A DNA stretch of 64,000 nt from Escherichia coli (lineage in GTDB: Bacteria > Pseudomonadota > Gammaproteobacteria > Enterobacterales > Enterobacteriaceae), in the NCBI RefSeq assembly GCF_050920415.1, contig NZ_CP169309.1. One strand, written 5' to 3'. This document shows, piece by piece, positions 24,201-29,882 of this stretch. A program made the position numbers. The stretch's first letter is position 1; each line of letters opens with the position of its first letter.

Positions 24201-27200
24201 GCTGCCAGGCGGGTTGCAGGATAAACAGCATCCACGGCATTACCCACAGCAGATGCCCCCAGACCACCGCTGTCCAGCTCCCATCTATGTTCAGCCATAG
24301 CGCCAGCATGTACTGGCCCGCCACCAGCGGCAGAGCGGGTAATAAAATGGGCAACCAGAGCCACAACTGGCGACGCTTTGCCCCCCATTCCAGCCACAGC
24401 AGTAACAGGACCAAAGCGATAAACGTCGCCACCAGCCCCATTGTCAGGCTGTTGATGAGCGCTTCACTATTGATCGTCGACTGATCCGCGAGGATCGCCA
24501 GCAGAACCACACACAGCACACCGGTTAAGGGTAAAAAACTCGCCAGTGTATTGCCGGGTAATAAAGGCGTGGCGGGCTTACGAACGCCATCTACGCGGGG
24601 AATGGTGCACTGCCAGGCGCGCCAAAGTAAATAGCCCAGCAAAACGTAGACGGCGAGTAACAGCATCAGCAGCAGGCTGGCGAGTGCGCCTTTCATCTGT
24701 TGATCGGCGTCGCCTTGGGTTAACCACTGCCAGCTAATTACCGCCAGCGTCGGTGGATTACCCGGCCCGAGAATAATTGCCACATCCACGACCGACAACG
24801 ACCATGCCACAATAGCCAGCATCGCCATTGCCAGTGCAGGCGCGACGGAGGGCAACAACAACCAGTTCAGACATTGCCAGCGGCTGTAGCCCAGCGAATC
24901 CAGTACAATAACCTGCTGCAACAGCCGTTTCTCGCTCAATACTGCCGCTAAGATCCACAGCAGAAATGCGCTTTCTTTCACCGCCAGGGTAAGGCCCAGC
25001 CCAATACCCAATTTATCCATCGGCGGAGTGAGAAAAGGAAAAACCTGATAAACCAGGCCACCTTCAGCAAACAGCAACAGGGCGCTGGTGGCAAAAGCCA
25101 CATGGGGAATGGCGAGCAGCCACGGCAGACGGGCGCACATACGCTGCCATTTCGGCCCAGGCCACAGCGCCATAATTACCAGCAGGGCAATCGTCAATGC
25201 GCCGAGCGCCGCGATGGTTGTTGACACCAGTGTTGCCAGTAAGGCCTGCGGTAGCTGCGGATCGGCAAATAACGCCTGCCAGTGTGCCAACGACAAAGCA
25301 GGCGATATCAGCGTGAGAGCTGCCGGGATCAGCGGTGCATAAATCACCGCCACCATCGCCCACAGCAACAAGATTAATGCGTACCGTAACGGTGTAGCCA
25401 TTCTTGTTCCAGCGCATTTACCCAACCTGCGTGCGGTTCAGCCAGTACCGGCGGCAGATCCTGCGGCATTCTTGATTGCAATATTTCATGCTGCCCGTCA
25501 GGCAGTTTTTGCGGATCGAGAACCGATGGATCGCCCCAGACAGCAGGGTCTGCTTTACGTAGCTGTGCATCAGGTGAGAGCAGGAAATTGGCAACCACCT
25601 TCGCCGCAGCACTGGCATTCGCGTTAGCAGGAATGGTGACAAAATGCACGTTGCCAATCATCCCCTCGTTAAAACCAAAACTGTAACTGCTTGCCGGCAA
25701 ATCGCCACTGGCGATTTTTTGCTGGGCATGTGCAGGATTAAAGGTCAGCGACAGGCGCAATGTGCCAGCTTTCAGCAGAGCATCCATCCGCGCGGGCGAA
25801 GGTGGGAAATCCTTTCCTTCGCGCCATAAATACGGATGCAGCGCATCAAGATATTGCCACAAGGGCGCAGTGATACGGGCGAAAGTCGCATCGTTCGGCG
25901 CTTCTTTTAATGCTGCGGGATCTGGCGTCAGCATAATCAGTAACTGTTCAAGAAATGCGGTGCCAGTAAAGTCTGGCGGGCGCGGATAGGTAACCGTGCC
26001 AGGATTGGCTGTAGCAAATTCCAGTAAGGCTTGCGGTGTTTGTGGTGGCTGTGGCGTAACATCGCGGCGGGCGATAAACGTCAGTTGAGCGCCGCCCCAC
26101 GGCGATTCTGCGCCTTCGACAGGTACAGAAAAATCTTCCCGTACCGGCAGTTGTGTATCGACATAACGCCAGTTTGGCAGAGTCTCAGCCCAGCCGGTTT
26201 GCAGTAAATTGGCCTCTTTTAAAGTGCGGAAGTTTTCGCCGTTCACCCAGAGCAGATCCACCGAACCGCCTGTCTCGCGCCCGGCTGCGGCTTCGGTCTG
26301 AATGCGCTTCACCGCGTCTGCGGCATCCGCCAGGCGGACAATCTTCAGGTTTATATCATAATGGGTTTTCATCTCGCCGCTAACCCAGTCGAGATAGCGG
26401 TTAATTGCGGTATCGCCGCCCCAGGCGTTAAACCAGACGGTTTGCCCTTTGGCCTCATTTTTAACTTCCTGCCAGTCACTGGCATGTGTTGCCAGAGAAA
26501 ACAGCGATAACAATCCCAGCAACCACCCACAATGGCGCATCATCTCTCCTTAAGAACGTTTTTCAGGAATACGGCACAGCCCCTGAGCGGGAATGTCCAT
26601 GGCAGAATTAAAACGGGCTGACAGATTTTGCAGGCCGATCAATGCCGTCAGTTCGGTGAGCGCCTGGGCGTCAAAATGCGCAGCCAGTCGGGTACGCAGG
26701 GCATCATCGACCGTTGGCGGCGTTACGCTGGCGGCTTCGGCGTACTCCAGCGCCAGCCGTTCTTCATCGCTAAAGAGCGGGCTTTGCCGCCAGTCAGCCA
26801 CTGCCAGCAACTTATCGGTGCTGCCGGTACGCTCGGCGACTTTCATACTGGTGATATCCACGCAAAACTCACACAGGCACATTTGCGCAATGCGCGCGCT
26901 GACAAGCGATCGCACTACCGGATCGAGCGGTGAGCGTTTACGCTCCAGCCAACCGACAAACATCGACACCAGATAAAAGATAAACGGGATCCGTCCCCAC
27001 CAGCGAATTGGACTTAGCACCTCGCCGTAATGGCGACGATGCAGCCACGCCTGCGGACGTAAACTTAAAGGAATTTTGCTAAGCGGTGGTAAACCCATCA
27101 GGCATTCCTCTTCTGGCGTTCAAGCCATATTTTTTTCGCCATAAAAATCACCACGGTCAGGGCAAACAGAATAAACAGTCCGGTGACAAACCAGAAGGTA

Positions 27201-29882
27201 CCGCCCGTTAACATACTGCCCGCCCAGGAATAAACAATAGTCGCCGGTAACTGACCAAGCCCGGTGGCGATAAAAAACGAGCGAAAACGTATTGACGTCA
27301 AACCGGCAGCATAGCTGATTGGATCGAAAGGGACAAAAGGCAATAACCGGCATACCAGGATAGTGTGTTTGCCGTAGCGAGTGAAAAAGCCGTCCATACT
27401 GTCAAGCATGGTTTTACCGGTTAATTTTTCCACCACTTCGCGGCCCATTACTCTGGCGATAAAAAAGCATAGCGCCGCGCCCGCCATAGAACTGGTCCAC
27501 GACAGCAAGCCGCCCCAGAACGCGCCAAACAGCGACGCATTGGCAAAGGTGATCAAAAATGCAGGCAGCGGTGCAGCAATGGCCTGTAAGATCATTAAAA
27601 AGAATGAGACCAGTGCAGCCTGCGTGCCGTAAGACGCAATAAAGCGTTCAATGCCTTGTTGATCCACGGCGGCAAAGGCTACAAGGCTGCTGTTAATAAA
27701 CTCATAAACGCCGGGAATCAGCGCCCATGCGAGCAGCGCAACAATTAACAAGATGATAATGACGCCACGCCAGAGCCACATTTTACGGTTTTTATCTCTC
27801 ATCTTTCATCTTTGTTGTTCGGTTAAAGAGGTTTTATCAGAAGTGGTCAGTGCCACTTGTTTGTAACGGGCGTAGCATTTAGCAAGCTGAATAAGAATAA
27901 ACAGTATTAGCCCTGCCAGACAAAGTTTGAAAATAAATGATAATGTTATGCCTTCAGTAACAAGGTCGCTGGCCATAAAAGTATAAATAAAGATCCCCGG
28001 CAGAGTCGTGAATGCCGAAATAAAGGTATATGGCCAAAAGGCAATGGCGGTTAATCCGTAGGCGTAATTTTGAATATTGTAAGGAAATAGCGGAATTAAG
28101 CGGGTAAGAATAAGAAAATCGATACCGTTACGTGCAATCCCTTTCTCAATAGACTGAAAGACGGTGGTATCCCCAACATATTTCAGCACCAGTTCTCGCC
28201 CCATCCAGCGAGCAATCAAAAAGGAAACCGACGAAGCGAGCGTTGCTGCAACTAACGAAAGCAGAGTCCCCAAGAATGGACCAAAAATAATGCCACTGCC
28301 AATGACCAGGACACTACCGGGCAGCAGCAGAAGAGTGGCAATAACAAATAACAGAATATAAAGGCTGTAACCGAAAATACCACTCTGGCGAATAAGTGCC
28401 TGCAAGTGAGGAAGATCGCTAATGAAATTGAATATGCCTGAAGCATAAACAAGATAAATTGCCAGAGCAAAAGTCAGACTACCAACAACGAACTTACACT
28501 CAGCTTTCATCGTGGAGATTTCCTATATCAAGCCTTGATAATAGAGAAGTGAAAAACGCGATGACGGTATAACAAACCTAAGCTGGTCACAAATCCTTAC
28601 TGCCAGTTTCTTGATTATCCTCAAGAATCGGCCTCCTGACCTGGAGGATGTCAGGAGGCTGCGTCATTAGCGGCGGAAGGTCGCCCACACAGGCGCGTGA
28701 TCGGACGGTTTTTCCATGCTGCGGATTTCATAGTCGATGCCGGTTTCTACGCAACAGTCTGCCAGCGGTTGGCTGGCGAGCAGCAGGTCGATACGCAGAC
28801 CACGGTTATCGTCAAAACCTTTTGAGCGGTAATCAAACCATGAGAAACGATCTGCTGTTTCCGGATTCGCATGGCGGAAGGTATCCACCAGCCCCCAACT
28901 TATCAGCCTGTCCATCCATTCACGTTCTTCAGGCAGGAAAGAACATTTACCAGTACGCAGCCAGCGTTTGCGGTTCTCTTCGCCAATGCCGATATCCAGG
29001 TCGGTGGGGCTGATATTCATATCGCCCATAATCAGCACCGGATTTTCACGCTTGAGTTCGGTTTCCAAATAATTTTGCAGATTCTGATAAAACTGCGCCT
29101 TCGCCGGGAATTTTATCGGATGGTCGCGGCTTTCACCCTGCGGGAAGTAACCGTTGATCACGGTGACATTGCCCAGCGGCGAGGGGATTTCCGCCATAAT
29201 AATTCGCCGCTGCGCCTCTTCGCCGTCGTCAGGGAAGCCGCGACGCACGGCAATCGGCGTCTCTTTGGTCAGCAGCGCCACGCCATAATGGCCTTTCTGC
29301 CCGTGATAAAACACGTTGTAGCCGAGCTTCGCCACCTCTTCGAGCGGAAACATATCGTCATGAACTTTTGTCTCCTGCAGGCCAATCACATCCGGTTGGT
29401 GCTTTTCGACGATGGCTTCAAGCTGGTGAGGTCTGGCGCGCAGGCCGTTGATATTAAAAGAGACAAATTTCATAGTCGCTGCCATTTATTCAGATAAAGA
29501 GTGCGTGGATGGTAGCAGAATTTCGCTTTGCTTACCGCCTGTTGTTAAGTGATTTGATCGATGGTTGTTAATGATGTCAACGATGGCGCAAAAAATGCCC
29601 GCTTTTGGTGCGCGCTGCGTCAGAATGGCGCAGTAATTTCCAGTAAATTTCGTCAATGATCACAATTCCAGAATTATATTTTACTTCTGCATAACATTGC
29701 GTTTTTTATTCTTTTTATTCACCTGCATCGCAAACGTATTCACTTTATATGCACTTTAAATGCATATGGTTTGGTTATAACTCCTTGATTTCCAGTTAGC
29801 CACCGCGGTTTATGCACTTTTATCACTGGCTGGCACGAACCCTGCAATCTACATTTACAGCGCAAACATTACTTATTATTAA

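Follow-up and report, generated by a model that had tools for sequence, protein, structure and literature searches.

A deeply diverged, ydjY-less allele of the ydjXYZ-ynjABCD operon in Escherichia coli, shared with Escherichia fergusonii and probably spread by recombination

The ydjXYZ-ynjABCD operon of Escherichia coli K-12 (b1750-b1756) lies between xthA and ynjE and opens with two genes of the DedA family, ydjX (236 amino acids in MG1655) and ydjZ (235 amino acids), which stand on either side of ydjY, a gene for a lipoprotein of 225 amino acids. It is listed as a directly FNR-activated operon (PMC3688515). Here we describe the corresponding locus in a stretch of 64,000 nucleotides of E. coli DNA (NCBI RefSeq assembly GCF_050920415.1, contig NZ_CP169309.1), hereafter the window, where ydjX and ydjZ follow each other without ydjY. 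The first-pass annotation of this sequence had noticed two adjacent 234-codon DedA genes 3 bp apart, as the listing of open reading frames (ORFs) and the junction sequence confirm, and had rightly given the K-12 order as ydjX-ydjY-ydjZ; it left the choice between a deletion in this lineage and an insertion in K-12. We argue that the window probably carries an allele in which ydjY was deleted in ancient times, and that this allele spread by recombination into the present strain. It is apparently an undescribed instance of a well-known type of event.

Two bodies of knowledge frame the locus. YdjX and YdjZ are the bacterial DedA proteins nearest to the eukaryotic TMEM41B/VMP1-type scramblases, and YdjZ has been assigned to COG0398 (bioRxiv 10.1101/2023.01.04.522824). 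The members of COG0398, the TVP38/TMEM64 subfamily, are said in the literature to be without conserved charged residues at the tips of the re-entrant loops, and flipping of undecaprenyl phosphate is considered there unlikely for them and phospholipid scrambling possible. The scores of the window proteins against the NCBIfam equivalog of UptA, the UndP flippase of COG0586, agree with this literature in that neither is a UptA equivalog: YdjZ reaches 35.7 bits for a cut-off of 250, and YdjX has no match. On the function of YdjY or on an allelic dimorphism at this locus we found nothing in the literature except an entry 'ydjZ_2' in a pan-genome list. The second body of knowledge concerns interspecies allelic replacement: core loci of E. 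coli can be mosaics driven by recombination, for example in the mutS-rpoS region.

The locus of the window occupies the same site as the K-12 operon, in the same orientation, with both DedA genes, and its ynjA-D genes are 93-97% identical to those of K-12 in nucleotide sequence. It is unlike K-12 in that ydjY is missing, so that 3 nucleotides stand where K-12 has a segment of 696 nucleotides between ydjX and ydjZ, and in that the first ~25-70 codons of ydjZ are replaced. We call type 1 the K-12 form, with ydjY, and type 2 the ydjY-less form. The parts of the locus on which the argument turns are the following, with coordinates in the window.

27806..28510, minus strand: ydjX, type-2 allele, 234 amino acids, a DedA/VTT protein of the TVP38/TMEM64 subfamily (ORF and Pfam VTT_dom)
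27098..27802, minus strand: ydjZ, 234 amino acids, DedA/VTT; the N-terminal ~25-70 codons are type-2-specific and the remainder is almost identical to K-12
27799..27812, minus strand: ydjX/ydjZ junction without ydjY, reading AAGATGA followed directly by AAGATGA
28511..28666, minus strand: xthA-ydjX intergenic region (operon promoter region), type-2 version (alignment and identity matrix)
28611..28624, minus strand: FNR-consensus-like site TTGAGGATAATCAA (pattern search and positional homology)
27590..28665, no strand: putative recombination patch, with the promoter region, ydjX, the junction and the first ~70 ydjZ codons (informative sites)
27735..28664, no strand: core of the deep divergence between the allele classes, corresponding to positions 5238-6880 of the K-12 locus (L001), which also hold ydjY

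Both 234-codon ORFs lie on the minus strand between ynjA and xthA, and both match Pfam VTT_dom (PF09335) with 87.9 bits for YdjX and 86.5 bits for YdjZ (cut-off 33.9; E=1e-24 and 2.5e-24). At the junction the stop codon of ydjX (TGA, 27806-27808), a spacer AAG (27803-27805) and the start codon of ydjZ (ATG, 27800-27802) follow one another. The RefSeq annotation of E. coli MFDS1022581 (NZ_CP169399.1), which is 100% identical to the window, likewise gives ydjZ and a second TVP38/TMEM64 family protein with nothing between them. No remnant of ydjY was found anywhere in the 64-kb window, where tblastn and blastn at E<=10 returned only chance-level matches, and no ORF of the YdjY family (Pfam PF27149 / NCBIfam NF040466) was found in it. 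For reference, K-12 YdjY scores 146 bits against NF040466; a Pfam profile search of the same protein gave no match, PF27149 being seen only in precomputed annotations and NF040466 in NCBIfam. The window does not fit the definition of a K-12-type seven-gene operon, since ydjY is missing; the six other genes are present and tightly packed in the order ydjX-ydjZ-ynjA-ynjB-ynjC-ynjD.

The two DedA genes of the window are orthologous to those of K-12, with full-length amino acid identities of 74% (YdjX) and 90% (YdjZ) and the conserved synteny xthA-[ydjX..ydjZ]-ynjA, and both belong to the TVP38/TMEM64 subfamily (COG0398); they are 30% identical to each other. The differences from K-12 are concentrated at one side of the locus: ydjX is ~75% identical at the nucleotide level, and all differences but one between the YdjZ proteins fall in the first ~70 residues. 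The promoter region, ydjX and the first ~25 codons of ydjZ form a core block of ~0.93 kb that is only ~72-77% identical in nucleotides to every type-1 locus. When K-12 is aligned over 12 kb with E. coli D7 and EA2, which also carry type 2, the flanks are 98-100% identical and the block from the xthA stop through ydjX to the ydjZ start is 70-75% identical.

This divergence bears on the simplest explanation, a recent deletion of ydjY within this E. coli lineage, which would fit a gene that is cleanly gone between two intact neighbours. E. coli WL297 is near-isogenic to the window and encodes an identical XthA protein, and it carries ydjX-ydjY-ydjZ. The two are 99-100% identical over many stretches, yet between ~27.55 and 28.6 kb, on both sides of the gap, identity falls to 69-81%, to return to 98-100% further out. 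All ydjY-bearing alleles, that of WL297 included, differ by ~25% from the window on either side of the gap, and the ydjY-less allele is also present in E. fergusonii and in 67 other, unrelated genomes of E. coli. A recent simple deletion is thus a most improbable explanation. The strain is not a mislabelled E. fergusonii or a member of a cryptic clade either: elsewhere the window matches thousands of E. coli genomes at 95-99% identity, and WL297 and 2013C-4282 at 99.5%.

The type-2 allele is widespread in E. fergusonii. Two contigs that carry the proteins named E. fergusonii (L010 and L011) encode xthA, a ydjX of 234 codons, the same 3-nucleotide spacer, a ydjZ of 234 codons and ynjA, and they are 98.5-100% identical to the window over the block. 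The cluster of type-2 YdjZ proteins includes many E. fergusonii genomes, among them the type strain ATCC 35469 (CAQ88838.1), whose protein is identical to the N-terminus of the window YdjZ up to residue 32. Among ~5.8 billion proteins, the matches to the window YdjX are 99% identical proteins named E. fergusonii, a few variants at 85-95%, and then only type-1 E. coli proteins at 72-74%; exactly the window YdjX is encoded by 280 public contigs, which bear the label E. coli or multispecies Escherichia. These comparisons show type 2 to be, on the sampled genomes, an allele of E. fergusonii, type strain included, and apparently the standard one in that species. The E. fergusonii locus has an architecture identical to that of the window, including the 3-nucleotide spacer and a 7-nucleotide insert at the junction. 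It differs from the window in that the flanks of the latter turn E. coli-type at the xthA stop, in a host genome that is E. coli. The protein search also returned a type-2a YdjX of 233 amino acids from a Logan assembly (P0006), in which residues ~67-97 are scrambled as if by compensating frameshifts; an error in sequencing would account for it, as would the occasional inactivation of a copy.

In E. coli the two allele classes are very unequal in frequency. A survey of 5426 complete genomes found K-12 ydjY DNA in 5353 of them, whereas a 251-bp probe spanning the ydjX/ydjZ junction of the window identified 70 (1.3%), and a 511-bp probe covering the promoter region and the 5' half of the window ydjX identified 70 as well. 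From the ydjY and junction counts, the two states are essentially complementary (98.7% versus 1.3%, with three genomes unaccounted for). The 70 genomes comprise the window strain, its close relatives N96 and 2017-02-2CC, and 67 ordinary E. coli of varied serotype and source, such as D7, EA2, ECONIH4/5, TW11681, AW1.7 and an O157:H16 strain. Within E. coli, type 2 comes in no fewer than four variants of sequence. The alleles of the 67 genomes (D7, EA2, ECONIH4, TW11681, AW1.7 and others), which we call type 2b, resemble the window in having the ydjY-less pair and a ydjX that is 94-98% identical. They lack the 7-nucleotide insert, are 4-5% less identical in ydjX and 10-12% less identical at the 5' end of ydjZ, and have other breakpoints. 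The agreement of the two probes (70 and 70) means that no chimera of type 1 and type 2 was found among the complete E. coli genomes. A chimeric ydjX does occur on two contigs (L016, positions 8001-8711, and L017), the first from the metagenome ENA ERZ773478 at ~5x coverage: residues 1 to ~153 are of type 2 (D7-like) and the rest of type 1, with ydjY and a K-12-identical ydjZ following. The crossover lies within a stretch of 34 residues that is identical in both alleles, and the same protein was found in a second sample. This chimera may be an assembly artefact of low-coverage metagenome contigs, given its absence from the 5426 complete genomes.

The presence of ydjY at this site is much older than the absence. 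The order ydjX-ydjY-ydjZ is found at the same site in Escherichia sp. MOD1-EC7003, E. coli E69, SCPM-O-B-8794, Escherichia sp. E1V33 and E. whittamii, five loci (L005-L009), all of type 1, that were recovered by scanning genome contigs with N-terminal peptide patterns. It is also found at loci whose AstC proteins are named E. albertii and E. marmotae and, among the outgroup loci recovered through protein searches and the contigs encoding the matches, in Pluralibacter ([Enterobacter]) lignolyticus, Citrobacter freundii and two enteric contigs (L023 and L025). The presence of ydjY at the same site in all seven other Escherichia lineages sampled and in the outgroups shows, within this sampling, that the three-gene order is ancestral in Escherichia and the neighbouring genera and that the ydjY-less state is derived. 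This decides against an insertion of ydjY in the lineage of K-12 or of E. coli, for which one might invoke the scatter of YdjY-family proteins over distant phyla, by itself a possible hint of mobility. In fact, ydjY occupies the identical position in all the non-fergusonii Escherichia sampled, in Citrobacter, in Pluralibacter and in both enteric contigs, and the identity of YdjY declines with distance just as that of the neighbouring genes does, which leaves the insertion with hardly any credibility. A much older insertion, predating the separation of the Enterobacteriaceae genera, may have occurred but would have no bearing on how the window and K-12 differ. Of the two options left by the first-pass annotation, the insertion in K-12 is not borne out; a deletion has the right polarity, but its placement in this lineage does not hold, because the allele is old, diverged and common to E. 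fergusonii.

How old is the split between the two classes? We estimated synonymous (dS) and nonsynonymous (dN) divergence with the Nei-Gojobori method. Between type 1 and type 2, ydjX has a dS of 1.36-1.55, a dN of 0.16 and a dN/dS of 0.10-0.12. In the same genomes astC, xthA, ynjA and ynjB have a dS of 0.12-0.31, and the dS of the flanking genes between E. coli and Citrobacter is 1.2-1.6. Between K-12 and four other Escherichia lineages, type-1 ydjX has a dS of 0.14-0.34, in line with the flanks of those lineages, which indicates that type 1 diverged along with its flanking genes. In ydjZ the contrast is internal to the gene (N-terminal dS 0.69 and dN 0.21; C-terminal dS 0.16 and dN 0.003). 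Between the window and E. fergusonii L010 the contrast of ydjX with its flank is reversed, with a dS of 0.012 in ydjX and of 0.205 in xthA. As estimated from these alignments, the synonymous divergence between the classes is shown to be at the inter-genus level, with both classes under purifying selection. A neighbour-joining tree places type-2 YdjX as sister to all Escherichia type-1 proteins, E. albertii included, and inside the other genera, while in the trees of XthA and YnjB the proteins from the E. fergusonii and window loci nest among those of E. coli.

One may ask whether the two classes could be an ancient balanced trans-species polymorphism, predating the diversification of the genus, maintained by selection without any foreign donor, and today fixed for type 2 in E. 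fergusonii and rare for it in E. coli. The position of type 2 in the YdjX tree, as sister of all Escherichia type 1 and not of another genus, is what such a polymorphism would produce, as is the lack of a closer type-2 homologue outside Escherichia. Type 2 also has some internal diversity, with a dS of ~0.10 both for the window versus D7 and for D7 versus EA2, and at least four variants in E. coli. Yet this diversity (dS <= 0.10) is well below the species-level divergence of the flanks (0.2-0.3), which indicates that the spread of type 2 is more recent than speciation. Type 2 is found in 0 of the 7 other Escherichia lineages sampled, a balanced polymorphism would be expected at more than the 1.3% seen in E. 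coli, and a dS of ~1.4 is above any within-genus divergence measured here. We therefore consider a balanced polymorphism unlikely, although more plausible than any other alternative discussed here.

Another way of reaching such divergence is that type 2 is the vertical E. fergusonii orthologue, which evolved very fast after the loss of ydjY, by relaxed or adaptive evolution, and was then introgressed into E. coli. Relative-rate tests go in this direction, with 17-27 type-2-unique versus 8-18 type-1-unique amino acid changes, a roughly twofold excess that lies on the type-2 branch in each of the 32 comparisons (p between 0.007 and 0.5). Where the classes show fixed differences, the outgroups share the type-1 state 15 times and the type-2 state 3 times, in a count that is biased, and dN/dS is higher within type 2 (0.22-0.35) than within type 1 (0.07-0.12). 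An increase in the rate of protein evolution cannot, however, yield a dS of 1.4 or a 23% divergence of the promoter region with indels, the dN/dS between the classes is only ~0.11, and the type-1 branch likewise has many unique changes. Relaxed evolution as the sole cause of the divergence is ruled out by the dS and the intergenic evidence, and the broader scenario of fast vertical evolution seems to us improbable. From the relative-rate tests, the split appears to lie deep on either branch, type 2 having evolved modestly faster.

The way in which the allele reached the window strain can be read from the breakpoints. Over ~280 consecutive informative sites (27590-28665) the window agrees with E. 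fergusonii L010 and differs from WL297; at the next 23 consecutive sites (28757-29045) it agrees with WL297 and differs from L010. Within xthA (28797-28997) it is 91% identical to L010 and 100% identical to WL297. This is the signature expected of a homologous-recombination patch of ~1.08 kb with one end at the xthA stop codon. In D7 the divergence starts three bases past the xthA stop, and in EA2 ~45 bases earlier, inside xthA. The strong divergence ends near ydjZ codon 25 (window ~27735), and the moderate tail beyond it ends differently in EA2, D7 and the window. The differing breakpoints imply more than one recombination event and, together with the abrupt switch of informative sites, argue for import by allelic replacement. 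The most economical reading would be that an E. fergusonii allele was imported into the sublineage of MFDS1022581, N96 and 2017-02-2CC. As in other mosaic core loci of E. coli, there are sharp identity transitions, recipient flanks around a donor core, and several independent breakpoints. Here, unlike in those, the import removes a conserved operon gene and leaves its neighbours undisturbed, and the dS of ~1.4 is far beyond the usual distance of the donor species.

Recombination seems to have marked the surroundings too. Between ~17000 and 38500 the alignment of the window with WL297 (L032) consists of stretches at 99-100% broken by many short patches at 85-97% (e.g., at 21300, 23300-23550, 24550, 30850-31100 and 32600-33400), several of which are nearer to E. 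fergusonii L010 or L011; this indicates that small recombination imports are probably frequent across the region. In L010, positions 1-1700 (cho-ves; K-12 1823300-1825090, window ~36800-38500) are 75-88% identical to K-12, and positions 17188-19888 (nudG-ynjH-gdhA; K-12 1841290-1843720, window ~18900-21300) are 60-85% identical to it. These blocks are interleaved with others at 89-99.7% (spy at 98-99.7%), and the window is E. coli-like in both. The pattern suggests a region that is strongly mosaic between E. coli and E. fergusonii.

The junction offers a glimpse of the original deletion. In D7 and EA2 the ydjX stop overlaps the ydjZ start as ATGA (AGATGAAAGAT...) and YdjZ begins MKDKNRKIW. The ATG of type-2 ydjZ has its aligned counterpart in an ATG within the 3' end of K-12 ydjX (AAAAATGAAGGATAGAACG followed directly by ATG), in frame with the ydjY start, and beyond the type-2 ydjZ start the sequence resumes as K-12 ydjZ from codon 7 (RKIW). 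An in-frame deletion may thus have joined the initiation region of ydjY to codon 7 of ydjZ. The window and E. fergusonii have 7 extra nucleotides relative to D7 and EA2, resembling a tandem duplication of GATGAAA, and it is this insert that converts the ATGA overlap into the 3-nucleotide spacer.

We thus favour, with good but not complete confidence, an ancient deletion of ydjY followed by the spread of the allele through recombination. The gene would have been lost long ago, in frame, in the lineage that gave rise to type 2, leaving both DedA genes intact and translationally coupled. Once complete, the allele would later have passed between lineages of Escherichia through homologous recombination, for which xthA and the conserved 3' two-thirds of ydjZ would have served as anchors, and this recombination would have brought it into the window strain, most likely from E. 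fergusonii. Type 2 may first have arisen in a sister lineage of Escherichia outside the sampling, may descend from an old allele that E. fergusonii has kept, or may belong to a wider mosaic pattern. The level of divergence alone would point outside the sampled genus, to a foreign origin.

Several observations weigh against this scenario. No donor was found outside Escherichia, the nearest relatives of type-2 YdjX in the search of 5.8 billion proteins being type-1 proteins (72-74%), although an out-of-genus origin would predict a closer homologue there. E. fergusonii L010 has two further hyper-divergent blocks within the same 20 kb, so type 2 might be old sequence native to E. fergusonii, the remainder of whose genome has become homogenised with that of E. 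coli. The exchange with WL297 could have gone in the reverse direction, with WL297 converted back to type 1, and over much of the 15 kb around the block both the window and WL297 are close to E. fergusonii. Values of dS above 1 are near saturation and Nei-Gojobori is a simple method; the reading of the junction as an in-frame deletion rests on ~30 nucleotides of alignment; and the species labels of the outgroups come from protein names and assembly records.

The type-2 promoter region is 77% identical to that of K-12, with ~23% substitutions and a 12-nucleotide deletion. Here the window matches the E. fergusonii loci at 100% identity, the D7 and EA2 loci of E. coli at 96-97%, and every type-1 locus at 72-79%. 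The FNR-like site reads TTGAGGATAATCAA in the window and TTGAGAAAAATCAA at the homologous position of K-12: both half-sites are conserved and the spacer alone differs. Since 3.4 sites are expected by chance in the whole window under the pattern search used (1 mismatch), the case for this candidate FNR site (28611-28624) is based on its positional homology. With the half-sites intact, anaerobic activation by FNR is predicted to be kept. The ydjX stop, the ydjZ start and the ynjA start, which overlaps the ydjZ stop by one base, are tightly packed, so the operon is expected to yield YdjX, YdjZ and YnjABCD, with no YdjY as partner. Immediately past the xthA stop, on the minus strand, the window has an inverted repeat (28631-28659) composed of GCCTCCTGAC, 9 nucleotides and GTCAGGAGGC. 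The K-12 counterpart has another sequence that still forms a hairpin (CTCCTGGC, 9 nucleotides, GTCAGGAG), so the structure is kept across both allele classes.

The neighbouring genes are those of the K-12 locus.

28667..29473, minus strand: xthA (exodeoxyribonuclease III), the left flank, of ordinary E. coli sequence (protein WP_000673911.1, the same in WL297)
26550..27098, minus strand: ynjA (CMD/AhpD-like), the right flank (PF02627; a weak match to a YciW-related family is below cut-off)
23213..26540, minus strand: ynjB, ynjC and ynjD, ABC transporter genes that follow ynjA in the operon (annotated by RefSeq in MFDS1022581; YnjB matches NCBIfam PRK11622)

Other parts of the window also depart from K-12. 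At 18815-18897 the window lacks ynjI (DUF1266), which in K-12 measures 1.04 kb and lies between gdhA and topB, and has 81 bp for the ~1.28 kb of K-12; WL297 is likewise without it, and E. fergusonii L010 has a DUF1266 gene there. Between ansA and sppA, ~840 bp (12249-13089; ORF 12301..13113, minus strand) have no K-12 counterpart, and the gene is annotated in WL297 as a SIMPL domain-containing protein. In the region 52000-58000 RefSeq places a gene for a type III effector of the ShET2/EspL2 family (espL1) beside ydiY-pfkB, where K-12 has the arpB pseudogene. The katE-chbG intergenic region (45529-45574) is ~45 bp versus ~256 bp in K-12, at a break of the alignment.

What YdjY does may be hinted at by its neighbours. 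In a Firmicute genome (GCA_015473145.1) and an ENA contig (L033 and L034) a YdjY gene adjoins VTT/DedA, rhodanese and Fer4/CCG genes; in a Desulfarculus metagenome-assembled genome (L035) it adjoins a VTT/DedA gene, in a locus that also encodes a Fer4-CCG-VTT fusion protein; in Sulfurospirillum (L021) its neighbours are ferredoxins, and there is no VTT gene. The E. coli cluster ends with the rhodanese gene ynjE. These three distant contexts are hints of a conserved association of YdjY, DedA and rhodanese (sulfurtransferase). It is conceivable, if doubtful, that YdjY is the periplasmic partner of the COG0398 DedA pair in a module that recurs across phyla in association with rhodanese and Fe-S/CCG proteins and that might serve envelope sulfur or selenium trafficking, and that type-2 YdjX and the N-terminus of YdjZ are co-adapted to its absence.

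Our analysis has revealed a natural ydjY knockout with co-diverged DedA partners, for which there are matched pairs of strains (WL297 and MFDS1022581; K-12 and D7). Both type-2 genes are intact in 70 of the 70 type-2 E. coli genomes and, with the dN/dS values between classes (~0.11 for ydjX) and within type 2 given above, this argues that type-2 ydjX and ydjZ are functional genes working without YdjY. The persistence of a ydjY-less operon whose DedA genes are under purifying selection shows that some genetic backgrounds can dispense with YdjY. For annotation and pan-genome work, the dimorphism accounts for the splitting of ydjX and ydjZ into two clusters and for the 'almost core' score of ydjY, and the locus provides a clear worked example of probable kilobase-scale gene flow from E. 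fergusonii to E. coli. If the co-adaptation were true, swaps between type 1 and type 2 and chimeras of the two would map the interaction surface of YdjY and give a genetic handle on the function of the bacterial TVP38/TMEM64 proteins.

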